From positions 32,001 through 96,000 of IMG/VR virus record IMGVR_UViG_3300045988_149331: 64,000 nt of DNA; one strand, written 5' to 3'. The stretch comes from a virus. Below the pieces are notes generated by a model, which was given only the letters and a program-made list of their open reading frames with translations, was not told where the DNA came from and made no database searches. This document shows positions 1 through 54,642 of the stretch, in pieces (the first letter of the stretch is position 1; each line of letters opens with the position of its first letter). Made by a program: the position numbers and the translations under genes.

Positions 1-1062
1 CGACTTGCCCTTCTTCATCTTAGCACCGTTCTTGTCGCACTGCTCGAAGCCTTCGTCGTCCTCCTCGGTCTCCTCTTCGGATTCCTCCTTCTTGCCGGCC
101 TTGGCATTCTTCATGTTGGCGGCGTTATGACGCGGCTCGTCGTGGGTTTCGTCTTCCTCACCCATCTGGCCGTCGGCGTCATCACCCTTTTTCACCTCTT
201 CGTCACCTTCAGCCTTGGCGCCTTTCGGGGTAATTCCCAGAGCGTCATAAGCCTTCTCGATGTCCTCGGAAGTGATGGATTTTCGTTTGTTCATAACCGA
301 TATGTTTTTGATTAAAGTGTATACACCTTGTGCGTTCGGTATTGTAATATTTGGAATGTCCTTGAAGATACATTCCATGACGGAAGATTTCGAGAAGGTT
401 TGTTTCTTTGGCTGGCCGTCAACCGATTCAGGCATCAGCGCTGCGCCGGACTCAGTGGTCAGAGCCTTCTTCTCGGTTTTTCCACTGCGCTCTTCAGCGT
501 TATCGTCCTCTTCCTCCGCATCAACGTCGATACCGTCAGCGTCGATCTGACCCTTGATGATATTTACGAACGTATGGGGGTTTTTGGGCATATGGGTTAC
601 AGCGACGCCTGTGATAACGGCCTTGACGATCTTATTGTAGAGCGGCGAGTTCTTGTCGTTAGAACCACGCTTTACGACCTTACCCTCGATGGAATACCCC
701 AGACGGCGCGTCTTGCTGTCGTGTTCGAGGGTTTTGGCCAGTTCATATACCTCGCACGCCATAGGCGACGAAGCGTACAGGTCGCTCTCGATCCAAAGAC
801 CTTCAGGACGCAGTTCCACCTTTGAAGGTTCGCCAATGATAGCCGACGGGGAGTTCTTGGCCTGGTGGTGCCAGTTTACCATGCCTGACTTCTTCAGCGG
901 GTCAACGTCGAAGCCTGTCGGGTCCAGGTATTCGCCATCAGCATCCTTATCCATAGTGGAGGCAATACCGCCAATACGCATAACAGGTTCGCCTGCTTCG
1001 TCGGTGGCCTTCTCGATGCGTCCGATGGGGCACCAGAAATTGAATTTATCGTCCTTAAACAT
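1..1062 (-). CDS. Prohead protease (HK97/S78-like) fused to an acidic scaffold-like C-terminal region; 3' end runs off the window
   Basis: Absent from the ORF track because there is no stop inside the window. ATG is at 1062..1060 and the frame stays open for 354 codons down to base 1. N-terminus reads MFKDDKFNFWCPIGRIEKATDEAGEPVMRIGGIASTMDKDADGEYLDPTGFD. The WHHQ and LGYSIEGKV blocks resemble the His/Ser blocks of HK97-family prohead proteases. The distal half is D/E/K-rich like a scaffold. Confidence 0.6.
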   Translation of the reverse strand, partial: MFKDDKFNFWCPIGRIEKATDEAGEPVMRIGGIASTMDKDADGEYLDPTGFDVDPLKKSGMVNWHHQAKNSPSAIIGEPSKVELRPEGLWIESDLYASSPMACEVYELAKTLEHDSKTRRLGYSIEGKVVKRGSNDKNSPLYNKIVKAVITGVAVTHMPKNPHTFVNIIKGQIDADGIDVDAEEEDDNAEERSGKTEKKALTTESGAALMPESVDGQPKKQTFSKSSVMECIFKDIPNITIPNAQGVYTLIKNISVMNKRKSITSEDIEKAYDALGITPKGAKAEGDEEVKKGDDADGQMGEEDETHDEPRHNAANMKNAKAGKKEESEEETEEDDEGFEQCDKNGAKMKKGKS

Positions 1063-1140
1063 GTTTACGATAGTGTACTGTTATCAGCGTTATATTTGTA
1101 ATGGCGAATCGTGTTGACGTGGGCCCAAACACGCCCCCAT

Positions 1141-1169
1141 TAACAAAATCCCCGTAACTGAGGGATTTT
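1141..1169 (-). terminator. Putative rho-independent terminator after the 589-aa gene
   Basis: 8-bp stem AAAATCCC/GGGATTTT (1145-1152 and 1162-1169) with a 9-nt loop. On the minus strand it is followed by TTTTGTTA. Confidence 0.4.
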
Positions 1170-1261
1170 CTTAGATATTGGCATATACGGTTTTTATTCT
1201 CAGAATATCAGAGGGATTTGCAAGATTGTTCGAAATAACTACTGTATAGGCCCTTCTTTTG

Positions 1262-3031
1262 CTATCCGAGTACAAAGATATGCTTGAGATACACCTGTAG
1301 GCCAGGATAACCTTCTAATAATCCAGATGTACATTGGAAATCAAGAACTCCAGCTGCACGACGGCGAACGTTTATTGAGCCATTGGAGCTGGTTGCGCTA
1401 TCAAAGAATCCCGCAATTGTATTCCATGAATTGTGCGCCGAAGGTAAATCGTAATATACGACCACATTTCCAGACGGACTAAATCGCCCATCGCTGTCGG
1501 CCATTTCGAAACAAAGCATTAATGTTACCCCGGGCGATAATTTTGCTAATTCGGTAGATCCATAGGGGATGATTGCACCGTTGCTTTGGTTGAGTTCTAC
1601 ATCCGATCCTGGTAGCTTTATTACCGTTTGTGCTCCTCCGCCGCCTAATTCTGTCCATTGAGCAGTAGTTCCGTTCGTCGAGCCGGAGAAAGTACGGCTA
1701 CCATCAGCTGTTTGGAGCAGATAGGTGTATAAAACAGGCCCCGATGAACTCCTAAAACAATGACCGTATAAAGGCGCAGTAACACCTGAAGGTCCCCCTA
1801 CGATTGTGCCTGCTGTACATATGATCACTCCTTGACCTACAGCCAAATTTCTTATGCTAATATTCGTAGGGTTATTGAAATTAGATACCTGTATTTTTGT
1901 TGCTGGCAGGTCTTTGATAGCAAGACTTACTCCCGTCATATCCACAGCCCCAGTTGTTGCGTTAACGGCGATGCGTTGTATTGCAGCATTAAACGTTGAG
2001 CCAGTACCTACCGAAGGGCAAATAAAGACATATTGATCGGTTTCAGCGCTGTCTTGAGATCGGATAAAGTCTAACTGACCGTAGTCTGCCTGATCGGGGG
2101 TACTGAATATCATACGGAAGATATCGGCAACCTTAACGAATTTCAAATCGCCAGTAGGCACACCCCCGCCTTCGCCGTATGTGAATTCGTATACTGAGGC
2201 TTCGATTCCTGTGGGAGTGCCAAGAATACTCCAGTTCGTAGCGTAAATGTTCGTAGACTGGTAAGTATACAGATACGAACGTTTATAAGTATTGATTGAA
2301 ATAGAGGTACCAACGTATTTAATCGACGAAGCAGAAATTTTTACAGCATAGCCTACCAAAGCCGAGCCAGGTCCGTTAGCGGCGTCATCGGCGCTCGTAA
2401 ATGTGAACATCTCGCCAACGGCAATATCACCCATCACGCAATTGCTGAAAGTGTTACTCTTAAAATCAGTAACCGTCAGATATTTCATGGCGCTGCCGCC
2501 GCTGCCGCCGCCTCCGGCCCACTCCATCATTACACCCATACCACCCCAGTCGTCATAAGCGGTCGAGTGCAATTTCTTGATGATTGCTTCGTCTGTCAGA
2601 GTTTGGAGTGTAAGCCACGCCATGGGGATACTGGACGAAGGAATGACGCGAATATAACTGTCGGTAAGATGGAAAATTTGGAGACCGTTCGTGCCTCCGG
2701 TTTCGGCGTTCGTTCCTTGGAGTATATTGACAATAAACGCCATTTCAGGTTTTCCTGGTGCGCCTGACGCGAGATTCCCTGTCACGATACGCAGACGTCC
2801 GATATTCGCCGCTGCGGTCAGTAGTCTGAGCATGTCCCAAAGTTTTACCTTGCTATCGCCGTATGTAAAATTGTTGGAAATGGGCAAATTGCCAAGCGAC
2901 GGATCTTGCGAAAACGTCAACGCCGCAATCTGGCTTGTGTTGATCTTGTTAGACTCAGAAACCTGAATTTCTTCTTGTCCGCTGGCTGAAGACTTCAGCG
3001 TCAACGCAGACATGTCAATAAAAGTAGGCAT
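1262..3031 (-). CDS. Hypothetical virion-module protein with three Gly-rich linkers
   Basis: 589-aa ORF sitting between the cargo genes and the prohead protease. Gly linkers are GGGGSGGS, GEGGGVPTG and LGGGGAQ, each followed by a beta-rich segment. I recognise no enzyme motif. Confidence 0.6.
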   Translation of the reverse strand: MPTFIDMSALTLKSSASGQEEIQVSESNKINTSQIAALTFSQDPSLGNLPISNNFTYGDSKVKLWDMLRLLTAAANIGRLRIVTGNLASGAPGKPEMAFIVNILQGTNAETGGTNGLQIFHLTDSYIRVIPSSSIPMAWLTLQTLTDEAIIKKLHSTAYDDWGGMGVMMEWAGGGGSGGSAMKYLTVTDFKSNTFSNCVMGDIAVGEMFTFTSADDAANGPGSALVGYAVKISASSIKYVGTSISINTYKRSYLYTYQSTNIYATNWSILGTPTGIEASVYEFTYGEGGGVPTGDLKFVKVADIFRMIFSTPDQADYGQLDFIRSQDSAETDQYVFICPSVGTGSTFNAAIQRIAVNATTGAVDMTGVSLAIKDLPATKIQVSNFNNPTNISIRNLAVGQGVIICTAGTIVGGPSGVTAPLYGHCFRSSSGPVLYTYLLQTADGSRTFSGSTNGTTAQWTELGGGGAQTVIKLPGSDVELNQSNGAIIPYGSTELAKLSPGVTLMLCFEMADSDGRFSPSGNVVVYYDLPSAHNSWNTIAGFFDSATSSNGSINVRRRAAGVLDFQCTSGLLEGYPGLQVYLKHIFVLG

Positions 3032-3068
3032 ATTTCTATGATTTTATGAATTTACAAATTTATAGTTG

Positions 3069-3593
3069 TCACGCCATTATTTCAACGTGTATTGCAGGCT
3101 CGTTGGCGTCAATAGAAACCTTCGGACTGTCGTACTTCGTATCGCCAAGCGGCGTAATAATTTTACGGCACTTTTCTTCTTTGGCCAATGCTTTGGTGAA
3201 GTCGCGTGGGTTTTTCATGCGGGTGATCGACAGATCGATGATGTTGCACTGACGGTACAACTCCTCCGTGGTGCAGTGGAGCGAAACACGTTGCCCCATT
3301 GAGGCTTGACGCTCGATTTCAGCTACCATCAGTTTCTCAACCTCAGACCGGGCCTGCTTTTTGCAGTTATCGTCAAAAACCTTCACAACAGCTGCACCGG
3401 GGGCGCGATAACGAATGCGCTTGCCGGCGCACAGGTTGTCGGCCATAGCCTTGGCCTGTGTTTCGGGGGTGCGCAGCGTGGAGGTAATGACGATATCGGG
3501 GTTGTTGGTATTATCGGCGACGCGGCTGATAAGGTCTTTCACCGTGTCGTTAATCGCAAACGCCGACTTGTTAGCGTATGTAATATTTGCCAT
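3069..3593 (-). CDS. Putative VanY/peptidase M15-like (Hedgehog/DD-peptidase fold) cell-wall peptidase
   Basis: ITSTLRTPETQ resembles the SGYRS..Q block. SLHCT...IIDLS resembles S.H..G.A.D with an insertion. EPAIHVEI resembles EpWHf. All matches were made by eye only. Confidence 0.4.
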   Translation of the reverse strand: MANITYANKSAFAINDTVKDLISRVADNTNNPDIVITSTLRTPETQAKAMADNLCAGKRIRYRAPGAAVVKVFDDNCKKQARSEVEKLMVAEIERQASMGQRVSLHCTTEELYRQCNIIDLSITRMKNPRDFTKALAKEEKCRKIITPLGDTKYDSPKVSIDANEPAIHVEIMA

Positions 3594-3987
3594 ACGGAAT
3601 TGTGATTTTGAGTGCTTCTACACTGATTGAGTTCGTATTCATCCAATCCAGCAAGTAGTCCGACTTATCGGCATTGCTTAATTTTACAAAGTCCGCAGGC
3701 GTCACGGCGCGTTTCGCCAGGTACTCCTTGAATCCTTGTTCCATGAGGGCAATACGCTGCCCCTCCATGGCTACCTTCTGGAACAACGGCGACAACTCAT
3801 CGAGAGTGAGAGTTTCCTGAATAGCCTTACGAAATTCCCGTGCGTCAATGTCATTCAACATCGGGAATTCGCCGCGGAACGGTATAAGTTCCGACGGGCG
3901 TTTACGATCGATGTATCGCGACGCTGCGCCTCCTACAACGGAGGTCGTCAGATTGCGCGGTACACCATATTTGCCTTTGCTTTTCAT
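3571..3987 (-). CDS. Hypothetical protein
   Basis: 138-aa ORF in the tight minus-strand array. It overlaps the next gene by 23 nt. Confidence 0.55.
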   Translation of the reverse strand: MKSKGKYGVPRNLTTSVVGGAASRYIDRKRPSELIPFRGEFPMLNDIDAREFRKAIQETLTLDELSPLFQKVAMEGQRIALMEQGFKEYLAKRAVTPADFVKLSNADKSDYLLDWMNTNSISVEALKITIPYGKYYIR

Positions 3988-3990
3988 GGC

Positions 3991-6372
3991 TTATTTCCTT
4001 GTAATTATTTTCGAACGGTTGAACACGATCATGAACGAGTTTCCGCAGTGATTACCGTTAGGCTGGATCATGGCGTCATAACCCTTCAACGCAGCGTATA
4101 CACCCAATACCTCGTCACACGATCGTGCGGCTTGATATATTCCGGCATAAATGTCCTTGTCGGGATTTCCGACGCTGTTGGTAGCCAATTTTCGGGCTGC
4201 ATCACGCTTTTCCTGATAGATACGGAAGGCGTCAGCGCGTTCCTTTTGAAGACGGTTTACTTCGTCGTCGAGATTATTGACAGCCTCCTTGACAGCTTCT
4301 TCGATACGGCCGTAGTGCTCGCGCATGATCCATTCCTTAAACTGGCGGACGGGATAGTTGTACGGACGTGAAAAGCCGCTTTTGCGCTTAATAGCGTTAT
4401 TCTCGTACCGGTAACGCGAGAACAGAAAACGCTCCGTAGTATTCGGCATTTTGATGACCAAATCACCACTCCCGTTGTTCTTCTCGGTAATAGTACCGCC
4501 ATTGGCCGTTACCCAGCCGCGGAGGTGGTTGTTCACGAAATCGTCAAATTTCATATAGTCCGGGTTGCCGTCATCGTCGATAGCACCCCAGTCGATGATC
4601 TGATCAATCTGCAACGGGATGTCCTTGTAGGCAAAGTCGTCCCAATGCATGTTGGCCTTAACCTGCTTTTCGGTAGTGTTGGTTAGGGTGTTCAGTTCTT
4701 GAGACAACTTGTTGTAGTTATCCTCCGCGTCTTGCTGCTCCTTAAGAGCCTTCTTGGCTGCAGGAGAAGTGGTGAGCGGCAGTTTCTGAATTTCATCACG
4801 AGCGTCTTGAACGGTAATCACCTTGGCGGAATCATCCAGTACAGCTTCGATGATAGCCCCGTTGTAACCAGCGTAACCACGGGCGTTTTTGTAAGACGAT
4901 GTGTGCTTGTACCCCGACGGCGTTTTATTGGCGTTATCAGAATCGTTGACGTGGAAATAGATTCCTTCGCCGTAAATACCTTGCGTACCGTAGAAACACG
5001 CGTCGTTGTACTTGAAGTCGTCAGCGTAATATTCCGTATCACTGCCGCGCACATTAACGCCACGGAACAGATGGTATTTTGACTGCGCCACCTTGGCCCA
5101 GAAGGTATTATCATCTACAACGTCAGGACGCACATCGAAACCGCGGGCCTTGCAAATATTGGACAGCATCTCCCATCCTACCTGATTATTGGTATTGGTT
5201 AACTTGTCCGCAGCACTGATTCCGCTGACGCTACTGTAGATTTCCGCCAACTCATCATCGGTGAACTCGCGGTACATTTCCGCATCCGGTTTCAGAGTTC
5301 GCGGCGCAACCTTTCTTTGCTGGCGTTGCAACTCTATCTCGTACTGTCCTCTGATGCGATCAAGGTCTTTGAAACGAGCCTCGATGATAGCACGCATCTT
5401 CGGTTTAGAGGCCAATTTACCAGCGTCGAAAAACGCCAACACCTCGTCTTTGCGTGCCTTTAAGGCGTCAATTTGGTTGATAAAATCCCGCGGCGTAAGG
5501 TTAGCTACAATCTGTGGGTTGTAGCGAACCATGCCGTCCCAGTCGATTTGACTGTTAAAAGGCTTATTGGCGCCTTGTGCTCGGTAGTCGAACGTACCGC
5601 CGTTATCCACGCGATAGACTTTGCCGGCGGCGTCAACCAAGCAGTTGTCATTCTGGTAGATATCCCAGTTGGCCAAAAAGGCATCAACGGCGAAGCCTTT
5701 GGCCATAGCGTCATAGTCCTTGGCCTGCGGCTCACTCATACCGCGCATGTACGGCGAAATAAGCGTCAAATCGGTTCCGTCGTCGTACATTTCATATTCT
5801 GGCGTGTCGAGCCCCAAGAGGTCATAAACCTGCGCGGCGTAGTATTCTGCAGCAACGTGACCGCGATTAGTGTTTTTAGAACTCTTGACGACAAACTCAC
5901 GCCCCTTAGAGTCCTTCATGAGTTTGGCTCCAGTACTACCGCCGAGGTCCTGCACATAGGTGAGGTCTGAAGGATCGGCAGGGAACATCTCGTTCAACTG
6001 CTTCTCTTCCTGAGCCAGCATGGCTTTAGAACGAAAGGCTCCTTTTCCAATAGGTTGGCCGTTGGCGGTCTTGTAAACTCGCCAGTCGTACGTCGTCTTG
6101 GCGTTAGGAGTCAGCGTCCAAATGTACACCACGCCATTCACGACCTTGGTCTGGCCAGGCATGATGGCTTTGGCTATCTCGGGGTCTTGATCGATACCGT
6201 GGATGTGGTCATACACCGATTTGGCGACGTACAGGTTGTACGAATAGTCGTCAGCAAAGTCTTCAGACCGCGCCTTATACGCTTCACACGCCTTCTCCAG
6301 TACGGCATCAGATATCTCGCCCTCAGCGTTACGGAGGGCGAAGACATCGAGTGCTTTTCTGAGTTCATCCAT
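3991..6372 (-). CDS. Multidomain 'polyvalent' protein: PI3K/PI4K-type-II-like kinase domain, PARP-like ADP-ribosyltransferase-like domain, coiled coil and a C-terminal GYDAM module
   Basis: Kinase-like: GREFVVKSSK and DAFLANWDIYQNDNCLVDAAGKVYRVDNGGTFDY, compared with the PI4K-II blocks NTDRGNDNWLI and IDNGLAFP. ART-like: YHLFRGV, YGEGIYFHV and YNGAIIEAVLDD, compared with PARP LFHGS, GxGIYFA and YNEYIVYD. C-terminus: LKGYDAMIQPNG..MIVFNRSKI. Confidence 0.55.
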   Translation of the reverse strand: MDELRKALDVFALRNAEGEISDAVLEKACEAYKARSEDFADDYSYNLYVAKSVYDHIHGIDQDPEIAKAIMPGQTKVVNGVVYIWTLTPNAKTTYDWRVYKTANGQPIGKGAFRSKAMLAQEEKQLNEMFPADPSDLTYVQDLGGSTGAKLMKDSKGREFVVKSSKNTNRGHVAAEYYAAQVYDLLGLDTPEYEMYDDGTDLTLISPYMRGMSEPQAKDYDAMAKGFAVDAFLANWDIYQNDNCLVDAAGKVYRVDNGGTFDYRAQGANKPFNSQIDWDGMVRYNPQIVANLTPRDFINQIDALKARKDEVLAFFDAGKLASKPKMRAIIEARFKDLDRIRGQYEIELQRQQRKVAPRTLKPDAEMYREFTDDELAEIYSSVSGISAADKLTNTNNQVGWEMLSNICKARGFDVRPDVVDDNTFWAKVAQSKYHLFRGVNVRGSDTEYYADDFKYNDACFYGTQGIYGEGIYFHVNDSDNANKTPSGYKHTSSYKNARGYAGYNGAIIEAVLDDSAKVITVQDARDEIQKLPLTTSPAAKKALKEQQDAEDNYNKLSQELNTLTNTTEKQVKANMHWDDFAYKDIPLQIDQIIDWGAIDDDGNPDYMKFDDFVNNHLRGWVTANGGTITEKNNGSGDLVIKMPNTTERFLFSRYRYENNAIKRKSGFSRPYNYPVRQFKEWIMREHYGRIEEAVKEAVNNLDDEVNRLQKERADAFRIYQEKRDAARKLATNSVGNPDKDIYAGIYQAARSCDEVLGVYAALKGYDAMIQPNGNHCGNSFMIVFNRSKIITRK

Positions 6373-6378
6373 GGCTGG

Positions 6379-8136
6379 CTATTCGAACAACAGGGTTTCT
6401 GCCTTTTCGATCGACATTTCATCAACGTGGAGTGCGCCAAGATCAATCTCTTTGGCCTTCCACGTATCAGGGATCATGTCTTCAGCACCGAGTGTTTTGG
6501 CGCGACGCTTGATCCAGCGGCGAGCGCGTTCGGGGTTCTTAGCGTTGCCGGCGAGGCGGATGGCATTCTTCAGATCAGACTTGTTGCGGATCGGGAACGA
6601 GCCGTCGGGGAGGGCCTCCTTTTTCTTGGCGAGTTTATCGCGCTGCTCTTCGGTGAAATCGGCCTTTTCGAGCGATTCTGCGCCGTTAAGTAACTGCTCG
6701 GCCTTACTGATCGCGTCGGAGGTTTCGATCGGTTGAATGGCCTCATACGCGAGACTCTTCGTCAGCGCACGCACGGCACTCTTCTCCCACTCCTTTTGCT
6801 TCGCACCGATGAGGTTCGTCCACTCACCGCCCTGTTGGGCCATACGGTTAGAACGTTCCGTAGAGCGTTTTTCTGACAGAATGGTACCGAAAGTACGGGT
6901 GGTAAACTTGGCGGGATCGATCTTATCCTTATTCTTGACGATCAAATCGAACAGCTCTTGGCGTTCGGCCTTGTCCTCTTCAGGATCGTCAAGGTGAGGT
7001 GCCTGAGGTACGTCCATACTGGCGAATCGGTCTTTTAGTACCTCGATAGTTTCATCAACCGTCAGGTACACCTCCGACGAAAGCGTAGCGCGGCTGATGA
7101 TAGCTTTAGTATCTTCGTTCTTGGCGAGGTTCACCAAGTCCTTGTTGGTCATGATGATGATACGTCCCGTGAATACGAAATTCGACTTGACGTCTTCAGG
7201 GTCGCCGACGACGCGTTTACCACTGGCGGCAGTAGCTTTCTTCATGATAGAAGCCAGGTCGGCGCGGGTGATAACGGAATCGGTATCGTCGAACAGCAGA
7301 ATCTTGCCGTTGTGGGCCTTGAGTACGCCCAACAGCTGCTTCTTGGAGTTGATATCACCAAGTTCAACGTAGTCATAATCGCCGTCGCCAGGGGCGTCGG
7401 TCTCAGCGTCAAACGGACGCTTGTTGAGCAGTTCGGCGATCTTCTTGAAACCGTACGACTTACCAACGCCTGCGCCTCCGGCCGAGATCATGAAGCGTTG
7501 CTCCTTGTTGTCCAAGAACTCCAGATACTGGCGGTTCAGGTCGTACATTACCTCAACGGGCGGCTGGTAGTCGGGGTCCTTACGCTTCATCTTGTAGACG
7601 AAACGGTCGTAGGCGATACGGTCTTGGCGGTTCTGGAGTTTGTTGAATTTCTTCTGAACACGCGGGTCCTCGGGGTTGAGGAACCAGTCTTCCATAATCT
7701 CGCCATCGACGTTTTCACCTTCGCCGTCGTTAATATCAACCTTGTCTTGGGCGTTAGTAGGCGCAACGTCGTCCTGCTTGGAGGTCATCTTCAGCAGCGC
7801 GTCGAGTGTACCGGAGGTATCAACAGCCGAAGCGTCGAATTCGTCACGCGTCTTCAACTCCTCATAGGCAATCTTACGCAACTGCGCGTTGCCCTTGGGG
7901 TTGTTTACTACTTTGAGCAGATTGTCTGCGGAGGTACGCTTGGCCCACTCTTCAAGGCTGGCGGAACCGCCAGCAGAACCCGATTTACCTTCGTCGGCGG
8001 CAGGAGCCTTCTTGTTCTTGGCGTTTTTGTCGAGACGCCAGTTGAACTTTCCTGGCTTGTATTCGGTCCAAACCCACGGCTGTGTAGGGTGGTGGTCGCC
8101 GACGTTGTGTTTTGCTTTTTGGATAATGTCTGACAT
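6379..8136 (-). CDS. AAA+/P-loop ATPase with an N-terminal leader shared with the ART protein
   Basis: Walker A is ISAGGAGVGKSYGF, Walker B is KILLFDDTDS, and a sensor-1-like IIIMTNKD follows. The C-terminal module is DGSFPIRNKSDLKNAIRLAGNAKNPERARRWIKRRAKTLG. Confidence 0.65.
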   Translation of the reverse strand: MSDIIQKAKHNVGDHHPTQPWVWTEYKPGKFNWRLDKNAKNKKAPAADEGKSGSAGGSASLEEWAKRTSADNLLKVVNNPKGNAQLRKIAYEELKTRDEFDASAVDTSGTLDALLKMTSKQDDVAPTNAQDKVDINDGEGENVDGEIMEDWFLNPEDPRVQKKFNKLQNRQDRIAYDRFVYKMKRKDPDYQPPVEVMYDLNRQYLEFLDNKEQRFMISAGGAGVGKSYGFKKIAELLNKRPFDAETDAPGDGDYDYVELGDINSKKQLLGVLKAHNGKILLFDDTDSVITRADLASIMKKATAASGKRVVGDPEDVKSNFVFTGRIIIMTNKDLVNLAKNEDTKAIISRATLSSEVYLTVDETIEVLKDRFASMDVPQAPHLDDPEEDKAERQELFDLIVKNKDKIDPAKFTTRTFGTILSEKRSTERSNRMAQQGGEWTNLIGAKQKEWEKSAVRALTKSLAYEAIQPIETSDAISKAEQLLNGAESLEKADFTEEQRDKLAKKKEALPDGSFPIRNKSDLKNAIRLAGNAKNPERARRWIKRRAKTLGAEDMIPDTWKAKEIDLGALHVDEMSIEKAETLLFE

Positions 8137-8171
8137 ACGTTGTGCAGTTTTCCAGATAAATACTTGGAAAT

Positions 8172-8981
8172 CTACACCTCCACCGCGTCAAAGTCAATAT
8201 CAAATTTCTTGTACACAATTCGCAACTCCGGTACGCCGTTAATTGGCTTCTTCTTTTCGTCAATACGAGCGTTCAACGGCCAGCGCTTGAGTATGATGTC
8301 GTGCGCCCGCTGCACGCGCTCCTGGCGTTCGTATACGTCTTGGAGACCGCCGCCCTGGTTGGCTTCCTTGTTCATCTTACTCTGGAGAAGGAACCGCACG
8401 AACCGCGCGTAGACGATTCCCAGGTACATGCATTTCAACGAATAGTCGATGTCGCATTTCAACTCCAACTTTTCGTCAAAGTCCAGTTCCAGCGTCCGTA
8501 GCCCCTTGAAGACGATCAAGTGTGGAATACCGCCGTACTTGAAGCGCGGGCTGACGTCGGTACAACTCCAGTCGAAGGCGCTCTTGCCCATCGTTCCATA
8601 CTCAAAATCGGTTTCCATGACCTCGCGATCAAACTCCTCAAAGAACTCGCTGAGTTCTTCCGGCGTTTTCAACGACAGCCCACACTTGGCTTCACCGTCG
8701 ATCGAGTAGAAGAAGTTGGCGATGTCGTCATCCATCACCACCACCGGGTGGTTCTTGCGGAGGTAGGTGTTCTTGCAGAAATTTACCACGTAGCTGTAGC
8801 CGCGGTTCGAGGCCGGCAGCACAATCAGCCGCTCACGGGCGTGACCCGCTTCGACGTATTTTTCAACGTCCTCCTTTTCGACCACAATATTGTAGTCAAC
8901 GCCGCCCTTTTCCAACAGTTTAGTCGTGACGCACTTGGGGCGGTTCTTGGACACGACGAAGAATTGACAGTTCATACTCAA
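8172..8981 (-). CDS. GT-A-like glycosyltransferase-like protein (DxD type; resembles TET/JBP-associated glycosyltransferases)
   Basis: FFVVSKNRP...LIVLPASNRGYSYVVNF...PVVVMDDDIANF, followed by a late GGGLQDVY block. Same architecture as the paralog at 25887..26702. Its stop overlaps the upstream gene by 4 nt. Confidence 0.4.
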   Translation of the reverse strand: MSMNCQFFVVSKNRPKCVTTKLLEKGGVDYNIVVEKEDVEKYVEAGHARERLIVLPASNRGYSYVVNFCKNTYLRKNHPVVVMDDDIANFFYSIDGEAKCGLSLKTPEELSEFFEEFDREVMETDFEYGTMGKSAFDWSCTDVSPRFKYGGIPHLIVFKGLRTLELDFDEKLELKCDIDYSLKCMYLGIVYARFVRFLLQSKMNKEANQGGGLQDVYERQERVQRAHDIILKRWPLNARIDEKKKPINGVPELRIVYKKFDIDFDAVEV

Positions 8982-9658
8982 AAGGGTAATTCACCTTCGG
9001 ACCATATTTCCTCGGGTGGGTTTTGTTCTATGAAACGTTGATATTTGTCTATCGTAGGCTCCAGCGACGGGTAGAACCTAAAGGCAAGTTCCCACTTGAC
9101 GTCAAACATATCGTCGCACGGGACTTTGCGCTTCATCAACACATTTTCGTTGTTGTAGCACTGAATTGTGACTTGCTGACGGCCACGCGAAGTGTACGAA
9201 TAGGGAAAGTCGCGATAGTACTCAGCCAGCGAAACCGTATCTTGAACAACGTCGTGAATGAACTGATTGAAGGGGTGTCCCAGCCCCAACGGCGCCAATA
9301 CGGTATAACCACGGTTGCGTCGTAGGAAACGACGCAAATGGTCGCGAAGCGTTTGTTCGGCGAAATTAAGCGTGTCAGTTCCGTATTTAGTTCTGAGGTA
9401 CGTATAGACGCTGGAGAGATTAAAGTCCTTGAAATGGTCGCCAAAATCGCTACAAATCGCATCTTCGAACCCAGTGTCGAAGACATCCATCGTAATACCC
9501 ATGAATTCATAGAGCGATCGCTGTTCTACAACGCGGTTTGGGTCGCTATCTACAGTAAGCACCCGAACGTCATATTCGGGTGCTACTAAAACGTGACAAG
9601 CGCTCATCAGGAGATCACCCGCGTGAGGCTCGACACACAGGTACTTTATTTTTCCCAT
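8978..9658 (-). CDS. LmbE/PIG-L-like putative de-N-acetylase
   Basis: N-terminal YLCVEPHAGDLLMSA compares with the PIG-L AHPDDE block. The later LGLGHPFNQFIHD compares with the HPDH block. It is translationally overlapped with both neighbours. Confidence 0.4.
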   Translation of the reverse strand: MGKIKYLCVEPHAGDLLMSACHVLVAPEYDVRVLTVDSDPNRVVEQRSLYEFMGITMDVFDTGFEDAICSDFGDHFKDFNLSSVYTYLRTKYGTDTLNFAEQTLRDHLRRFLRRNRGYTVLAPLGLGHPFNQFIHDVVQDTVSLAEYYRDFPYSYTSRGRQQVTIQCYNNENVLMKRKVPCDDMFDVKWELAFRFYPSLEPTIDKYQRFIEQNPPEEIWSEGELPF

Positions 9659-10605
9659 GGCCGCTTGTAGATTTTCTCAGCGCAGGGGCCGTCTTTCGAC
9701 ACGTCCTCAGCCATCTTCCGGATTTCCGGCGTGATAGGCGGCAGCGTTTGCTTACCCATTTTGTCAGGCAGGAAGCCGACGCGGACGCTTACGTGCGTAC
9801 ACCCCTGACACGGGCGGAAGCGGCGGTCGTTGTTGTACAGCATGACACGGGCGGCGTGAAAGCGCGGGTGGTTCCACAGGTCTTCGATGGGCATGTCGTG
9901 GATGTTGGCGATTGGGTACTCACCGCGGAAGTCATCACAGCACAGACACACCTGGCCATTCCACCTCACGTCCAGTTCGCGGAACGGGAAGGTGCACCGC
10001 TTGTTGTTGAACGAATCGTCAAGCGGGAAGGCCGCGCCGCAGTGGTTGGCCAGGCGACGTGTCATCTTGTTGGTGTCGTCGTGGGCGATAGGCGGCAGCA
10101 AGCAGATACGACGGCCCTGCTTGGGGTAGTAGTACGGAACGCCGGGTTCCAGCGTCACGACGTTGTACTTATCAACATCGATCTTCTCGACGAAATTCCA
10201 GTCGCCGTTGGCCGTGTAGCAGTCCACCAGAATATCGTTCATACCTGCTCCGAACAGCGCGTCGAGGTACGCCTCGGTGTCTTCAGCGTGGTTCATGGCG
10301 TAACCGTTACTGTACATATGAAACACAGCCTTCGGCAAGTGCTTGCGGAACGTGGCGACGATGTCGATGAAGGCAGGATTCAGCGTCGGTTCGCCGTGCA
10401 TAGCGAACACGAACTTACAGTTCCAACCCACCCGCGCTACCTCCGAAGCAATACGCTCGGCCGTTTCGACGGTCATGAAATTCCAGGGCTTGGTCCCCTT
10501 TTCACGCATACCGTGTAAACCGCAGAACGAACAACCGAGGTTACAGCCCTCGGTAGGTTCAATCTGCATGGTAAACGGGGGGTCTTGTACGATTTTGTTT
10601 TTCAT
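9646..10605 (-). CDS. Radical SAM enzyme with a SPASM/twitch-like Cys-rich C-terminal domain
   Basis: CNLGCSFCG is a CX3CX2C motif, followed by a GEPTLNP block. The C-terminus carries CTFPFRELDVRWNGQVCLCCDD and RPCQGC. Confidence 0.75.
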   Translation of the reverse strand: MKNKIVQDPPFTMQIEPTEGCNLGCSFCGLHGMREKGTKPWNFMTVETAERIASEVARVGWNCKFVFAMHGEPTLNPAFIDIVATFRKHLPKAVFHMYSNGYAMNHAEDTEAYLDALFGAGMNDILVDCYTANGDWNFVEKIDVDKYNVVTLEPGVPYYYPKQGRRICLLPPIAHDDTNKMTRRLANHCGAAFPLDDSFNNKRCTFPFRELDVRWNGQVCLCCDDFRGEYPIANIHDMPIEDLWNHPRFHAARVMLYNNDRRFRPCQGCTHVSVRVGFLPDKMGKQTLPPITPEIRKMAEDVSKDGPCAEKIYKRPWEK

Positions 10606-17942: not shown

Positions 17943-18200
17943 TTAGCGTGAATATAGGTAGGCGGTACGGTCGTCCCAAACGAAATTGAAACTCATATCC
18001 CCTTGAGGATATTCCGTGATGGTAATGCCGTTGGCGGTTGTTTCACGTTCGATACGCCAGCCCGGCTCTCCCTGGCCTGTGCCGATAGGGGCATATCCGC
18101 GATACACGGTCCCCTCAGTGGAAGCGTCGATGATAGGCTTCGGCATGGCCTCCGAAAGCAACTGCACGATGGGTGCAGTATTCTTCTCGTTACTCGTCAT
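17943..18200 (-). CDS. Small hypothetical protein downstream of the portal
   Basis: 85-aa ORF overlapping the portal stop by 11 nt. Confidence 0.5.
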   Translation of the reverse strand: MTSNEKNTAPIVQLLSEAMPKPIIDASTEGTVYRGYAPIGTGQGEPGWRIERETTANGITITEYPQGDMSFNFVWDDRTAYLYSR

Positions 18201-19956
18201 GATCTATTGCTTTTTGTAAGTATTCGTCAAATGCGGCCACGAGCGGGTTTGCCTCACGGGCCTTCATAGTCTCTTCGTCGTCGCCTTGGGCGTAAAGGTC
18301 AAACGGGTTGCCGCCCTGGGCGTCGGCGTCTTCTTCGCCTTCACCACCAGCCACAGGCTCATCAGCCGGGCCGCCTGCTGCCTCCATACCCATACCAGCG
18401 GCCTCTTCGAATGGGTTTCCACCGCCCATTCCCATACCGCCCATCGCCTGCTGCTGTTGCTGCTTGGCGCTGAGGGCTTGTTGAATAACGGAGTTTTCGA
18501 TAGTATCACCACCCTTTTCTTCGCCGATGGCGGGGAGGTCCCACTTTTCGCGAATTTCATCGACGGTCTGGAAGGCTTGAAGGCGTTTGATGTCCATATC
18601 CAACTCCTCGGAAATAGTCATTCCGTTGAGGCCCATGAACACGAACTCAAAGTCAGGGTTAATCTGGTCAACGATGAACTTGTTAATCTTACGCTGGATG
18701 AACTTCAACAGCGGATACAGACCCTTGTCTTTCGACTGCTCCATACGTTGTTTTTGGCCATCGCCAAACGTCAGGCCGCTGTTGTTAGAACGTGATATGT
18801 CCCAACCGATTTCCGTCGGGTCGATACAGTACACAGCGCAAGCGATCTTAATCAGGTATTCCATCCAAGACGTGTACTCCATATCACGGTTGTTCTTCTG
18901 GAGGTCTACCCAGTCAATATCACCTTCGACGACAGGCGTCTTCCACGACTGCATAACGCCTGAAATCATCGCCTGCCACTGCTGTTTGAACTGCTGAAGC
19001 GAAGCCTCGTTGACGTTGCCCTTGATACGCAACAGACCCTTCGGGGCTGACCCCTGTGAGAAGAAACGGCGGTTGTACTCATCACCCCAAAGCATCGACG
19101 TGACGACGTTGATCAACTCTTCCAACTCGGAGTTCCCGTAGCCGTTAGCGTAGATAGACGTTGACGGGTTGCGGATTCCAAAGCACAACTCCCATGGATA
19201 GAACTGTGCCACCTTGGCTGTTTGGTACACCTGGACGTAGGCCGGGTAGTAACCGTCGATTTTTTGCCCCCAGTTTTGGCGGTCATCCATCATTACGCCG
19301 CGGAAATACGGGTTGTCGTATTCACCATCAAAGTACGAATCTGCCAACCGGAACGTAGCAGCGTCTACAGCCTGGAAACGTACCAATTTACCGCGGCGAT
19401 TGCGGATACATTCAAACGTCAGCTGGTCGAACGTCAACGAGTCGTCAACGATCTTACGTATGAACTCGTCAAATTCGTCACCATCCCACGCAGCAGTATC
19501 GCCACAGTTTAGGATGAAGTCCGTGATGGACGAAGCGATCTTGCAGTCTTGGGAGTCCATTTTCTGCTCCATACCGTGACGCGGCTTGCGTCGAATAACG
19601 AAGCCCGTCGAATAGCGGTCGGCCTGCGGTTCAGCAAAGTCGGCCACCTGATTCTTACGGGTCTTGATGATGGAGTTGATAATGGGGGTGCGGCTCATCC
19701 GGCGCAGCGTCTCGTACGAGAGTGAGAACGGCTTATCCTTGTAACCCAAAAACGAGTTGAACTCCAACGGGTCGATGAGATATGCCTTGGGGGCCACGTT
19801 GGCGGGCTTGCTTTGCTGGTTAAATATTTCGGCCGCTTTGAGTATGTCGGACGGGTTATCACCACGCAGCGCCTTCTCCACCAACAGCGATTTGCGGATG
19901 GTCAAGGCTTGCATGGCGCGTTCTACCGATTCCAATCTTTCTTTTACACCGGACAT
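18190..19956 (-). CDS. Portal protein
   Basis: 588 aa, in the head-morphogenesis block upstream of the MuF gene, with a Gly/Met-rich then acidic C-terminal tail. The family call rests on size, context and general resemblance. Confidence 0.6.
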   Translation of the reverse strand: MSGVKERLESVERAMQALTIRKSLLVEKALRGDNPSDILKAAEIFNQQSKPANVAPKAYLIDPLEFNSFLGYKDKPFSLSYETLRRMSRTPIINSIIKTRKNQVADFAEPQADRYSTGFVIRRKPRHGMEQKMDSQDCKIASSITDFILNCGDTAAWDGDEFDEFIRKIVDDSLTFDQLTFECIRNRRGKLVRFQAVDAATFRLADSYFDGEYDNPYFRGVMMDDRQNWGQKIDGYYPAYVQVYQTAKVAQFYPWELCFGIRNPSTSIYANGYGNSELEELINVVTSMLWGDEYNRRFFSQGSAPKGLLRIKGNVNEASLQQFKQQWQAMISGVMQSWKTPVVEGDIDWVDLQKNNRDMEYTSWMEYLIKIACAVYCIDPTEIGWDISRSNNSGLTFGDGQKQRMEQSKDKGLYPLLKFIQRKINKFIVDQINPDFEFVFMGLNGMTISEELDMDIKRLQAFQTVDEIREKWDLPAIGEEKGGDTIENSVIQQALSAKQQQQQAMGGMGMGGGNPFEEAAGMGMEAAGGPADEPVAGGEGEEDADAQGGNPFDLYAQGDDEETMKAREANPLVAAFDEYLQKAIDHDE

Positions 19957-26721: not shown

Positions 26722-29442
26722 CTAACCTAACATGTCGAACTTAAATCCCGTCGTCATACGCGAAGCCGCCAAGTCAGCCAACCAGAACGAAGACGAAATA
26801 TCGTCATGACTGCCGACGCTCTCCAGCCCCTTTTCGGTGAAGGCTACTGAACCGAGGTCTTGGAAGATGAGGTCCTTGACCTGCTGTGAATAGACGTTCC
26901 CCACCGGGATGTGAATCTTACCGCGTTCGAACAGCGTCGATAGGTGGGGCCATCCGGTCTTGAGGTCATATTTGTCGATTCCAGTTGTATGGCCGATGAC
27001 GGGCATCCCTTCGGTATCAGCTGTTTCGACGAATATCTGCTGAAAGGTGTTATTCTCCATCACGATCAGGTCAGGCCGGAAACGGGAATTTATACGCCGC
27101 AAGACATTCATCTGCTCGAAGAACTTGGCGCCTTTTTCGCGGTAAAGGTGAAGCAGCCAACGCTCATCAGTCAGTTCGTCAATACCCCACACGCTGAATA
27201 CCGCGTAGTCAGCGCCGACGTTGGCTGAAATAGCGAAGTCACAGCCAACGACTACCTTGGAGAACTTGATGGGGAACTCTTCGCGTGAATCCACCAGCGT
27301 GTATTTCTCCATCCTCAGCAGCGACCGCGTGAGAATTTCCATCGGGAAAATAGACGATTCGTTGGTGATCGGGCGGCAAAGGTTCTCGCGCGAGAAGATG
27401 ATCGACCCCTGGGTCTCCTTTTTATCCATCAGATCCTTAAACGACCAACGCTGCGGCCACAATATTCGCCCGTTGGGGAAGATGGCCGGATATTCGATAA
27501 CGAACCAACCGTTCTTGGTCTTCAGGTCGCCATAAAGGTCTTCAGCGTGAAACGGTGTACCGACGACGATAATTTGGCCGCCAGGTACGAGCATGTTCAT
27601 AATTACGGAGTGGAAATAGTCGGTGGATTTGTTCCGTTGGAGAGCCGAATAGATGACGTTATCCTTCAGACCATCATCGACGATAATCCAGTACGGGTGA
27701 GCGCCACGCACCGAAGAACCAAAACCCTTGCCTGTCAAACGCGCGCCGTTACGGCACACTATATTGGTAGCTGACCAGTTGGCTGACGTTGACTGAGGAT
27801 AGAGTCGTTCCTTCAAGATTTCGTTTTCCTCGATGGTACCCTTCAGAATCTCCAAAAGGTCAACGCTCTGTTGTAACGAGAACGAAAACAGAAATCCGCG
27901 GTTCGACGACGCCACGGTGGGACGCTTCGAATAACGAACGCTTGACGGCTTTTTGTAGCGGTACAACTGCCACGCTGCGTAGGCGTTGGAGAAGTAGAAC
28001 GAGTTGTGAGCAACCGTTCCGTCGCCCAGTACGAAGCGATGGTCGCCATCGGTGGTGATCGAGACATATTCCCCTTCGCCAACAGGCGTGATCTTCAACG
28101 ACGATACCACCGTAGGGTGAACACCATCGATAGTTCCCCAGTCTTTGTGTGACGTCTTGGTAGACCAGTCGGTTTGGACCTTTTTACGGGCTATTTTCAC
28201 GGGGATTCGATCCAGTTCGCCAGAAATAGTTACACACCACGACGAATAGTCACGCCCTAACGCCTTACAATACCGCGTTCCACCGCCCATTCGCGTACAG
28301 AAGCCAAGACTGTCGGCCAGGTTCTTCACGTCACACACCAGCTGGTAGTTCGTATTACCGAAGTGATAGCCACCCTGCCAGTAGTTACCGTCGGAATCGA
28401 TCAACCCAGCCAACACCTGGAGGCGGACTGCTTCGCTGTTGACGAGATACTGCTCTGGAATGTGTTTATTGTAAAGCAGGTTGTAGCCCTTCAACACCCT
28501 TTCAATCGGGTTACGCTTACCGCGACCCCGAACGCCGACTCCAAGCGTCACGACAAGTCCCTTTTGGCTGTAGCGAAGCCCCGTGCGCTCGGCGTAGCCG
28601 CGGAGATATTCACGCACTTCAGGGTCGGCGGTGGTGATCTTCTGGTTGTTGGAGTTGCCGTCACCTAACCAGTACCCCAAGAAATACGGCTCCAACGTCA
28701 CAGGCCGTGCTGGATATTGTACCGCTACCTTGAAACCACGATAACGTTCCTTGATCCAGTTGGGGGTCTTACTTAACAGGGTCGGCATATCAATGTCCAC
28801 TATCCGCTTCGACGCTGTATCGATGGAGCCGTTGCGGTCCTTTTCGATCAGCGTACAAATGTGACGCGAATTGACCGTGTAACTATCACCGCGCGACTGG
28901 TCGATACGGTACATCGTGGAATCGTGACCGCGGTGCGTAGCCACCACACGGCGTGGTGTAGAGTTGATACCCATCAACAGATCGCCAACCACAACGTCTT
29001 CTACCCTCTTGATGGTTCCGTCGTACATCCTCACTGGTGTTCCAACAGCCTCACATTTCCCGTGGTCACGAGCAGCGTTGATACACAGTTTCTTGTGCTG
29101 GTGAACTAAATCGCCCCACTCCAGGTGGTGCCACGATAGTTGAAAGTCGGGGATAACGGAAGTGATGAAATACGTCAAATTGGCACACCGCAGCGTGTCT
29201 TCCACCACGGCAGAAATATTCTCTTCATAGCGCGGCTTAAAGTCGATCGACGCGTCACCTGTGTACATCACCTTGTAGGTGTCTTCCATCAACGCCGCGA
29301 ATATATCGTCAACATCGTGTGAGTCGCCACTCATCAACTCATTCAGTCCGCGCTCATCCAGCCCCTCGATTATTTCATCAACGAGGTCCAGGCACGCCAA
29401 ACGGTGCGTCACCGACGGCGATATAATAGTGTCTAAACCCAT
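26722..29442 (-). CDS. terL: Terminase large subunit precursor containing an intein
   Basis: The exteins join as INAARDHGK|SFYFSNAY, a Walker A-like motif. The extein total is 555 aa. The C-terminal half shows nuclease-type acidic blocks. Confidence 0.75.
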   Translation of the reverse strand: MGLDTIISPSVTHRLACLDLVDEIIEGLDERGLNELMSGDSHDVDDIFAALMEDTYKVMYTGDASIDFKPRYEENISAVVEDTLRCANLTYFITSVIPDFQLSWHHLEWGDLVHQHKKLCINAARDHGKCEAVGTPVRMYDGTIKRVEDVVVGDLLMGINSTPRRVVATHRGHDSTMYRIDQSRGDSYTVNSRHICTLIEKDRNGSIDTASKRIVDIDMPTLLSKTPNWIKERYRGFKVAVQYPARPVTLEPYFLGYWLGDGNSNNQKITTADPEVREYLRGYAERTGLRYSQKGLVVTLGVGVRGRGKRNPIERVLKGYNLLYNKHIPEQYLVNSEAVRLQVLAGLIDSDGNYWQGGYHFGNTNYQLVCDVKNLADSLGFCTRMGGGTRYCKALGRDYSSWCVTISGELDRIPVKIARKKVQTDWSTKTSHKDWGTIDGVHPTVVSSLKITPVGEGEYVSITTDGDHRFVLGDGTVAHNSFYFSNAYAAWQLYRYKKPSSVRYSKRPTVASSNRGFLFSFSLQQSVDLLEILKGTIEENEILKERLYPQSTSANWSATNIVCRNGARLTGKGFGSSVRGAHPYWIIVDDGLKDNVIYSALQRNKSTDYFHSVIMNMLVPGGQIIVVGTPFHAEDLYGDLKTKNGWFVIEYPAIFPNGRILWPQRWSFKDLMDKKETQGSIIFSRENLCRPITNESSIFPMEILTRSLLRMEKYTLVDSREEFPIKFSKVVVGCDFAISANVGADYAVFSVWGIDELTDERWLLHLYREKGAKFFEQMNVLRRINSRFRPDLIVMENNTFQQIFVETADTEGMPVIGHTTGIDKYDLKTGWPHLSTLFERGKIHIPVGNVYSQQVKDLIFQDLGSVAFTEKGLESVGSHDDISSSFWLADLAASRMTTGFKFDMLG
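28003..29055 (-). mobile_element. Intein (351 aa) with a LAGLIDADG homing endonuclease, inserted in the TerL P-loop
   Basis: It starts CEAVGTPVRMYDG and ends GDGTVAHN, with Ser as the +1 residue. The LAGLIDADG motifs are YFLGYWLGDGNS and VLAGLIDSDGNY. Boundary codons were checked at 29053-29055 (TGT) and 28003-28005 (AAC). Confidence 0.8.
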
Positions 29443-31525: not shown

Positions 31526-31607
31526 CACCCGAGTTGCCGTTCCTATTTACACTCCCGAAACTGCCGACAATGGGCGAACTGCCACAACATTCCGTCGGGT
31601 GAAAAAG

Positions 31608-31679
31608 TTGATCTGGAAGGGTTCGAACCTCCAATACGAGAACCAAAATCTCGTGTGTTGCCCATTACACCACAGATCA
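31608..31679 (-). tRNA. tRNA-Gln (anticodon UUG)
   Basis: Hand-folded cloverleaf from TGATCTGTGGTGTAATGGGCAACACACGAGATTTTGGTTCTCGTATTGGAGGTTCGAACCCTTCCAGATCA plus a discriminator A. It has a 7-bp acceptor stem with a U1-A72 pair, a 4-bp D stem, a 5-bp anticodon stem with loop TTTTGGT, and T-loop TTCGAAC. No CCA is encoded. Confidence 0.9.
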
Positions 31680-54569: not shown

Positions 54570-54642
54570 GATAAGGTTTAGTTAAAACGGCTGGCCAACT
54601 CGTAAGCCAGCCAGCCGCGGGAAAATGATGGAAACGCAGGAA

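Follow-up and report, generated by a model that had tools for sequence, protein, structure and literature searches.

In 2017, Iyer et al. described the polyvalent proteins that phages and conjugative elements encode, with ADP-ribosyltransferases (ARTs) as their commonest effector domain and kinases as one of the listed classes (PMC5512222). The ART family of these proteins has a His on strand 1, a Tyr on strand 2 and an Asp on strand 5, and the signature of their kinases (Kinase-PolyVal) consists of the loss of the C-lobe, a conserved His...Asp with an insert, a Glu before strand 2 and a Gln in the N-lobe's final strand (PMC5512222). MuF polymorphic toxins and MuF-fused head proteins have been described as well (Jamet et al. 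2017, PMC5576092), and individual phage enzymes directed at the host include T4 Alt, a capsid-delivered ART modifying the host RNA polymerase, and T7 gp0.7, a kinase phosphorylating host proteins (PMC5512222). The gene considered here occupies positions 3991 to 6372 of a 64,000-nucleotide stretch of viral DNA (positions 32,001 to 96,000 of IMG/VR record IMGVR_UViG_3300045988_149331; this whole stretch is called the window, and its numbering is used throughout) and codes for a protein of 793 amino acids (aa), which probably joins an atypical, HipA-like kinase to one ART-superfamily domain that is split, according to structural models, by a large insert.

The open reading frame (ORF) and all of the motifs quoted for it in the original prediction, which had been made from the DNA letters alone, are present, and they lie on the minus strand, the plus-strand translation of 3991..6372 being broken by many stops. 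Counting the Met as residue 1, as in all that follows, the motifs are VVKSSK (161-166), LANWDIYQNDNCLV (233-246), RVDNGGTFDY (254-263), LFRG (435-438), GEGIYF (468-473), AIIEAVLDD (506-514), GYDAM (764-768) and FNRSKI (784-789). The ORF is a conserved gene and no chance ORF: 113 full-length homologs of 34-98% identity, all of ~785-835 aa, are found on metagenomic contigs of 90-125 kb, one cluster at 90% identity has 836 member sequences, and the gene order around the ORF is conserved in 77 loci of IMG/VR. In the 54-sequence family alignment the mean column identity is 46%, and invariant residues cluster in motifs or predicted catalytic positions. Searches of Pfam and PHROGs with the 793-aa protein, whole or in five pieces, returned nothing except HipA_2 at E 0.047, and by sequence the PDB gave noise or E-values of at least 0.2 with phmmer and with three profiles (full-length, ART and kinase). 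The AlphaFold2 (AF2) model of the full-length protein, built on the family alignment, has a mean predicted local distance difference test score (pLDDT) of 89. The gene is divided as follows:

3991..6372, minus strand: whole gene of the multidomain 793-aa ORF, with ATG at 6372 and the stop codon at 3991-3993 (ORF list and translation)
5980..6372, minus strand: N-terminal domain, aa 1-131, three helices and a small beta sheet (alignment, DSSP)
5335..5979, minus strand: predicted HipA-like atypical protein-kinase-like domain, aa ~132-346 (Foldseek, residue conservation, sub-threshold HipA_C and HipA_2 matches)
5197..5334, minus strand: linker, aa 347-392, with a conserved PR.LK...EMYREF motif (family alignment)
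4774..5196, minus strand: N-terminal half of the ART-like domain, aa 393-533, strands 0-4 (insert-deleted AF2 model, Foldseek, BFVD, column counts)
4162..4773, minus strand: insert interrupting the ART-like domain (aa 534-737), made up of long helices running antiparallel and an alpha/beta subdomain (DSSP)
3994..4161, minus strand: C-terminal half of the ART-like domain, aa 738-793, strands 5-7, packing with aa 393-533 (hhalign spans the junction)

A kinase-like catalytic core had been proposed from the motifs, and it is borne out both by the structure searches and by the conservation of K163, E176, D237, N243 and D256. The kinase region is modelled with a pLDDT of ~85-95, and its top 50 Foldseek matches in the PDB are all protein-kinase-like folds (E 2.3e-5 to 1.2e-3, probability ~1.0), including the kinase of the lanthipeptide synthetase ThurKC (2.3e-5), AmiN, PAKs (PAK1), RNase L, PI3Kdelta and PI4KIIIbeta. 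Key residues are the Gly-rich GGSTGA (144-149), K163, E176, D230, D237, D242-N243 and R254-V-D256-N-G-G. In a 20-sequence alignment of the family and nine distant polyvalent proteins, K163, E176, Y183, D230, D242, R254 and G258 are invariant and G145, S146, N235, D237, N243, D256 and G259 are conserved in at least 90%. Judged from this alignment, the domain appears to hold the complete set of residues for ATP binding and phosphotransfer, and aa ~132-346 are probably an atypical HipA-like kinase that is predicted to be active.

As to the family of this kinase, the type II PI4K identity that had been suggested finds no support: PI3_PI4_kinase (PF00454) is matched at E<=10 neither by the 793-aa protein nor by 20 relatives, no type II PI4K is found among the top 50 Foldseek matches, and HipA_C, HipA_2 and CtkA are nearer. 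The motifs D..NDN[WC]L[IV] and [IV]DNG of PI4KIIalpha resemble those of the kinase domain; PI3Kdelta and PI4KIIIbeta stand among the generic kinase matches at 4e-4 to 8e-4, a likeness at the level of the kinase-like superfamily. HipA_C (PF07804) is matched by 13 of the 20 kinase family members (best E 0.0015, all sub-threshold), HipA_2 (PF20613) by three, again sub-threshold, and an actin-fragmin kinase model by one. The HipA_2 match of the 793-aa protein itself reaches 13.4 bits against a cutoff of 27 and is thus under the Pfam gathering score, and a relative (P0186) comes closer at 6.4e-5 and 22.8 bits, still below 27. CtkA, a HipA-like kinase, gives the highest target-normalised template modelling (TM) score for the region (0.47), and the kinase profile picks up HipT in the PDB at E 0.2. 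By these comparisons the HipA-like kinases would be the closest named kinase family, with all matches lying under the curated thresholds. No Pfam model of Kinase-PolyVal is matched by the 20 members at E<=10, and the catalytic motif is N-W-D with no conserved His, unlike the H...D of Kinase-PolyVal; the present family therefore appears to differ from the Kinase-PolyVal of PMC5512222.

For the C-terminal part of the protein, a PARP-like ART with Arg in place of the first His had been predicted, followed by a coiled coil and a separate C-terminal GYDAM...VFNRSKI module. The ART fold and the Arg, R437, which is invariant, have held up, as have the long helices, predicted at ~537-574 and ~673-734; the extent of the domain had been misread, and the supposed separate module supplies strands 5-7 to this one fold and contains D766. 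In the full-length model the strands, as assigned by DSSP, follow in the order FRG (with R437), GIY (with Y472), AIIEAVL, a short strand, an excursion of ~205 residues, YDAM, FMIV and IITR. When the insert was deleted, so that in the first row of an alignment with full-length homologs aa 393-533 are joined directly to aa 738-793, AF2 returned one compact domain with a pLDDT of 93.6 and a predicted TM-score (pTM) of 0.90. Its top 44 Foldseek matches in the PDB belong exclusively to the ART superfamily (including RES), among them exotoxin-A-like toxins, MbcT, Xre-RES, cholix, tankyrases, diphtheria toxin and ParT. Structure comparison had been named beforehand as the check on both folds, and it returned the kinase and ART superfamilies, not unrelated folds. 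Amongst the predicted viral structures of BFVD there are 15 matches to the ART model at E<1e-3, with uncharacterised phage proteins down to 3.7e-10 (query-normalised TM-score, TMq, 0.6-0.8); named matches are a 'capsid maturation protease and MuF-like fusion' (1.4e-5), ART-PolyVal-like proteins (3.1e-5 and 1.1e-3) and an iridovirus PARP-like protein (1.5e-3). By these models, aa 393-533 and 738-793 fold into one ART-superfamily domain, related to the PARP/diphtheria-toxin side.

The same conclusion is suggested by homologs in which the domain is not interrupted. Across the deletion junction, the ART family profile aligns to the contiguous C-terminal domain of gp22 of Streptococcus phage Javan74 (hhalign E 2.4e-12), and further homologs of the ART domain are SP-15 gp271 (hhalign 5e-8) and a protein of Enterococcus phage SEsuP-1, the latter being the only find of a tblastn search with the Javan74 C-terminal domain; a protein homology search with that domain gave two fragments only. 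In a protein of 1423 aa (P0208) the ART-like domain is repeated in tandem, with at least three complete copies that have no interruption and part of a fourth, and an ADPrib_exo_Tox domain of the R-S-E (Arg-Ser-Glu) type stands at the C-terminus; from its sequence, P0208 would be a multi-ART polyvalent protein. The GxGIYF motif of its copies is where ART-PolyVal (2.3e-5, below the cutoff) and PARP (2.4e-3) are matched. Since the homologous domains of Javan74, SEsuP-1, SP-15 and P0208 are contiguous, the insert is specific to the family of the 793-aa protein.

With respect to the active site, the key residues are RGFD (410-413), F-R437-G438, G.G-I-Y472-x-H474 and Y500 in the N-terminal half and G757, AAL-K763-G-Y-D766, G773-N774 and N785-R786-S-K788 in the C-terminal half. 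R437, at the end of core strand 1 of the model, Y472, on strand 2, and D766, at the start of strand 5, are invariant in 54/54 family sequences; the same Arg-Tyr-Asp (R-Y-D) set is kept in the Javan74, SEsuP-1 and P0208 copies, and SP-15 has Lys for the Arg. The Glu of IIEAV (E509), for which a catalytic role had been proposed, is a poor candidate, as it lies on strand 3 and is Glu in only 19 and Lys in 15 of the 54 sequences. Strand 1 carries Arg and strand 5 Asp at the places of the His and Glu by which the H-Y-E (His-Tyr-Glu) type of PARPs and diphtheria toxin is defined. Compared with the R-S-E type, the Arg is present, but strand 2 reads G-I-Y as against S-T-S and there is no conserved ExE, and neither PF03496 nor PF01129 matches the 793-aa protein. 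ART-PolyVal (PF18760, cutoff 31.2 bits) likewise matches neither the protein nor 27 family members, and in relatives it stays sub-threshold (P0208 25.6 bits, Javan74 gp22 17.7 bits); hhalign of the ART profile with the bona fide ART-PolyVal domain of P0193 is not significant (E 0.068). The equivalence of D766 with the Asp of the H-Y-D (His-Tyr-Asp) set is drawn from the order of secondary structure elements and from a by-eye match of motifs with P0193 (GFDALIQ as against GYDAMIQ). Taken with these qualifications, the domain seems to represent, within the ART-PolyVal / Tox-ART-HYD2 clade, a variant with Arg-Tyr-Asp.

The remaining parts of the protein have conserved motifs as well. The N-terminal domain has the motif PGQTKVV.G..Y...T....T.YDW and no Pfam match above noise. 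In six variants (P0176, P0180, P0182, P0184, P0185 and P0195) the kinase and the split ART are kept and the N-terminus is swapped for a region of ~280 aa, in which no recognisable family and no MuF was found. Conserved motifs of the insert are DWG (~594-596), NGG (~624-626) and AIKRKN, and its ~205 residues may serve to recognise a target or partner. In hhalign comparisons with 12 polyvalent or MuF proteins, neither the N-terminal domain nor the insert showed a relation.

The combination of kinase and ART had been held not to be a described phage effector. This is too strong in view of the polyvalent ART and kinase proteins known since 2017 (PMC5512222), and also of the relatives of the kinase itself. 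A HMMER scan of 1.84 billion cluster representatives (50% identity) with the family profile yielded 6267 representatives at E<=1e-3, with 3573 reaching 1e-10 and 640 reaching 1e-30. The best 150 of the 6267 comprise ~25 full-length representatives of the family, the six N-terminal variants and, for the remainder, proteins of 500-3400 aa with the kinase-like domain inside them. Amongst the matches listed, 82 representatives have at least 450 aa and no R-Y-D domain; at least 34 of these (at least 41%) also carry an ART, 33 of the R-S-E type, as counted by means of a home-made profile whose seeds were regions verified by Pfam, and a single ART-PolyVal, which reaches the Pfam cutoff. MuF was found in at least 29 of the 82 by a home-made MuF profile. 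Multi-domain proteins of phages thus combine kinase and ART repeatedly, and several of them are annotated plainly as 'ADP-ribosyltransferase'. In individual homologs of the kinase region the partner is MuF (P0114, P0115, P0117, P0119), an R-S-E ART (P0116, P0118, P0120, Dolphis gp117) or WGR, and in one 647-aa protein (P0191) it is a RelA_SpoT alarmone-synthetase-type domain. Because P0114-P0120 and Dolphis gp117 carry R-S-E ARTs, hhalign found no relation between them and the ART profile. GodonK gp67, Javan74 gp22 and the SEsuP-1 protein are encoded directly after portal genes. A search of the literature found no paper on this HipA-like kinase family, nor one connecting such a family with polyvalent proteins or ARTs. 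As a separate observation, the kinase-like domain is matched by five stretches in one protein of 3416 aa (P0162) and by three in another of 3130 aa (P0170).

The window is part of a tailed-phage genome with almost all genes on the minus strand, including a split DNA polymerase, a helicase, an SbcC-like nuclease, the large terminase (26722..29442) and the portal (18190..19956), whose best likeness is to Chryseobacterium phage MA9V-3 (42%) and SPO1-like phages. Megablast of 25 kb against a phage collection gave zero matches, so that no close cultured relative is found there, and none of 50,697 phage records is a close relative. The clade carrying the gene consists of abundant ~100-kb human-gut phages, in which the gene is a conserved core gene, and to our knowledge it has no cultured member. 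Full-length relatives in genome bins lie on contigs binned as Bacteroidales (including one of 97 kb) and in one Sulfuricurvum bin, which lends weak support to a Bacteroidota host. The 793-aa gene was originally placed between MuF and the prohead protease; its actual neighbours are a putative nucleoside triphosphatase (NTPase), a small ORF and an endolysin slot, and Phage_Mu_F and prohead protease families are matched neither by the flanking proteins of the window nor by 53 orthologous flanking proteins of 12 relatives searched with Pfam. The adjoining ORFs of the window are:

6379..8136, minus strand: upstream 585-aa ORF with an invariant Walker A GGAG[IVA]GK[ST] (GGAGVGKS at aa 220) and weak AAA matches
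3571..3987, minus strand: 138-aa ORF, starting 3 nt past the stop codon of the 793-aa ORF
3069-3593, minus strand: 174-aa ORF in the endolysin slot, second ORF downstream, whose copy in the window matches no family

In every related locus examined, the order is an ORF of ~480 aa, one of 480-730 aa, the homolog of the 793-aa ORF and one of 119-138 aa, continued by an ORF of 136-223 aa, sometimes one of ~105-119 aa, one or two of ~480-600 aa and then a 495-aa ORF with a weak SU10_MCP match, which is taken as the major capsid protein. The 793-aa gene, the portal gene upstream and this capsid-like gene, ~4.5 kb downstream, share one strand. By its Walker A motif, the product of 6379..8136 can be regarded as an NTPase; the ORF matches phrog_1250, is weakly similar (E ~1e-4) to hypothetical proteins of ~300 aa in T4-like phages and always adjoins the 793-aa gene. 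That it might itself code for MuF is ruled out by the Walker A motif and the AAA hints. The small ORF directly downstream, without a Pfam domain in our search, could code for a partner, chaperone or immunity protein of the 793-aa protein; a role as a widespread immunity or partner gene was considered and set aside, its homologs being confined to the phage clade and hence uninformative. NTPase gene, 793-aa gene and small ORF form a three-gene block conserved in all loci. The endolysin slot behind them is swappable, with GH108 plus PG_binding_3, Amidase_2, Amidase_3, muramidase or DUF5675 in relatives (L023-L075), and in distant relatives it is followed by a small ORF with a lipoprotein signal (spanin-like). 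In positions 1-10000 of the window, terminator-like sites show no excess (11 as against 12.3 expected from shuffles), promoter-like sites are commoner than in shuffles (16 as against 8.7, standard deviation 3.1), and no site is assigned to the 793-aa gene.

Elsewhere in the window, two genes similar to TET-associated or beta-glucosyl-HMC glucosyltransferases (8172-8981 and 25887-26702), a radical SAM plus SPASM gene (9646-10605) and a dUTPase-like gene (25345-25890), all on the minus strand, might form a DNA-hypermodification set. The DNA polymerase extends over two adjacent minus-strand ORFs (61869-63572 and 58289-61159), the second with an HNH-endonuclease-like stretch at ~aa 535-617, which suggests the insertion of a mobile element or a split polymerase. 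The large terminase ORF (26722-29442, minus strand) is unusually long with 906 aa, and its N- and C-terminal halves match different terminase PHROGs, besides a weak match to a primase family. A long ORF of 436 aa (54625-55935, plus) and another of 423 aa on the other strand (54643-55914, minus) cover nearly the same stretch, and a single tRNA-Gln gene with the anticodon ttg (31607-31679, minus) lies on the gene strand.

With slightly better than even confidence, we read the 793-aa protein as a two-enzyme, host-modifying effector of the polyvalent type without a MuF anchor, a reading in which we infer the catalytic activity of either domain as well as substrates, timing and packaging. The kinase domain would use ATP to phosphorylate, and the ART domain NAD+ to ADP-ribosylate, host macromolecules, most likely proteins, and this dual modification would favour the takeover of the host or blunt its defence. 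Delivery could proceed by loading of the protein into the capsid and its ejection together with the DNA, since MuF-fused head proteins typically carry both domain families as cargo. By analogy with these MuF-fused relatives, and given the position between portal and capsid genes, such delivery is plausible, yet our confidence that the protein is indeed packaged in the virion falls somewhat short of even. Several observations weigh against the effector reading as a whole. Sequence profiles assign neither domain to a named family with a score that reaches the curated threshold, the PDB matches of the ART model are weak (best Foldseek E 1e-2, TM 0.3-0.41), and the clustering of R437, Y472 and D766 is presumptive. 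The canonical His and Glu are lacking from the ART domain, which may accordingly have NADase activity, a substrate other than protein, or no activity. MuF (PF04233) is not found in the 793-aa protein at E<=10, nor does the home-made MuF profile hit the family or the six variants; the immediate neighbours are the NTPase gene and a lysis cassette instead of head-assembly genes; and a full-length homolog is present in no isolate phage among 50,697 phage records.

Part of these observations would fit a protein that is never packaged. The same two enzymes might be made during infection and act inside the infected cell, like T4 ModA/ModB or the T7 gp0.7 kinase, modifying host or phage proteins in the middle or late phase, perhaps in concert with the NTPase encoded alongside and with the product of the small downstream ORF. 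That neither the 793-aa protein nor its N-terminal variants have MuF or a recognisable packaging domain, that the flanks are a Walker-A NTPase gene and a lysis cassette, and that NTPase gene, 793-aa gene and small ORF stay together in all loci would all be in line with this scenario. We regard it as the main rival, with a probability that is appreciable but clearly below that of the favoured reading; against it stand the occurrence of both domain families mostly in MuF-fused proteins or in proteins encoded beside portal genes and the location of the gene between the portal and capsid genes, with which it shares a strand. It is considerably less probable that the kinase is the sole protein modifier and that the ART-like domain degrades NAD+ (as a RES/MbcT-like NADase or phosphorylase), acts on nucleic acids or is a non-catalytic NAD- or ADP-ribose-binding scaffold. 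The missing canonical His and catalytic Glu, the presence of E509 in just 19/54 sequences, the MbcT and Xre-RES toxins among the best PDB folds (1e-2 to 2e-2) and the failure of ART Pfam models to match the 793-aa protein speak for such a function; however, the invariant R437, Y472 and D766 on strands 1, 2 and 5 appear to have the layout of the active H-Y-D clade, Arg is the strand-1 residue of R-S-E ARTs, and relatives match the ART-PolyVal and PARP models at GxGIYF. A mainly structural virion or assembly protein with enzyme-like folds as relics, e.g., a head-internal or decoration protein acting through its helical hairpin, might be imagined from the long helices (537-574 and 673-734) and from the location of the gene upstream of the capsid gene; this is highly improbable, since relics would be expected to drift, whereas the residues at catalytic positions of both folds are invariant down to 34% identity and are kept in relatives that have just one of the two domains in common.

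Within the favoured reading of a two-enzyme effector, the kinase and the ART might also work as a coupled pair, the kinase phosphorylating the ADP-ribose mark or NAD+/ADP-ribose, or priming the same target residue or complex. This idea is speculative and, in our estimation, has little chance of being correct, but it would explain the repeated fusion of one kinase family to three ART clades (R-S-E, ART-PolyVal and R-Y-D), and, if true, a composite phospho-ADP-ribosyl mark could resist the macrodomain and ARH hydrolases of the host.

New in the present protein are the MuF-less architecture of a kinase plus ART protein, an ART fold into which a large insert is placed and whose His is exchanged for Arg, and the membership in a very large kinase-like family for which the searched copy of Pfam has no model. 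If both domains are active, the protein would be a compact dual-modification effector that is open to direct expression and testing, for which K163, D256, R437 and D766, instead of E509, are the residues suited to mutation. The kinase-like family sits mostly inside phage polyvalent proteins, often beside ARTs, and the ART-like domain appears to define a branch with Arg-Tyr-Asp that escapes present ART models; the recognition of both families would improve the annotation of many 'hypothetical' head-associated proteins of phages.

In comparison with known systems, the 793-aa protein, like polyvalent proteins, joins host-directed enzyme-type domains, both homologous to theirs, and does so with two distinct effector-type domains in one ORF on a phage contig with terminase, portal and polymerase genes. 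Unlike the polyvalent proteins of PMC5512222, its enzymatic domains number only two, and a MuF or other virion-anchoring module is missing. With ART-PolyVal (PF18760) and Tox-ART-HYD2 it has in common the ART fold, the strand-2 Tyr in GxGIYF and, presumably, the strand-5 Asp in [YF]-D-A-[LM]-I, and it differs from them by the invariant Arg in place of the strand-1 His and by the large insert between strands 4 and 5. The C-terminal domains of Javan74 gp22 and the SEsuP-1 protein are homologous to the split ART, with RGFD, [FY]RG, GxGxYF, G[YH]D[AG] and [LF]NR in common, yet these proteins have an N-terminal MuF (in Javan74 gp22 at 8e-14, besides a weak ART-PolyVal match at E 0.006), are encoded immediately behind the portal gene, and have their ART-like domain in one piece and no kinase. 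With HipA, HipT and CtkA the 793-aa protein shares a kinase core that is compact and contains Lys, Glu, D...N and a metal loop of the DxG type, but neither the N-terminal domain of HipA nor a toxin-antitoxin context.

The same kinase-like domain together with an ART in one polypeptide is found in Dolphis gp117, Jeremy, fHe-Yen8-01, ST4 and GodonK gp67, phages of Pseudomonas (Dolphis), Yersinia (fHe-Yen8-01), Aeromonas (ST4) and Gordonia (GodonK), whose large 'ADP-ribosyltransferase' proteins match the kinase domain at 4e-12 to 4e-8 by tblastn and at 1e-28 to 1e-22 with the family hidden Markov model. These proteins differ in that they are 1200-1500 aa long, contain further domains and are homologous in the kinase region only, the ART of Dolphis being an R-S-E ADPrib_exo_Tox domain. 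T4 Alt, finally, is an ART of the R-S-E clade without a kinase, and both Alt and T7 gp0.7 are homologous to the 793-aa protein at the superfamily level at most; in their case the two activities reside on separate proteins of separate phages, whereas here both predicted enzymes are combined in one polypeptide of 793 aa.

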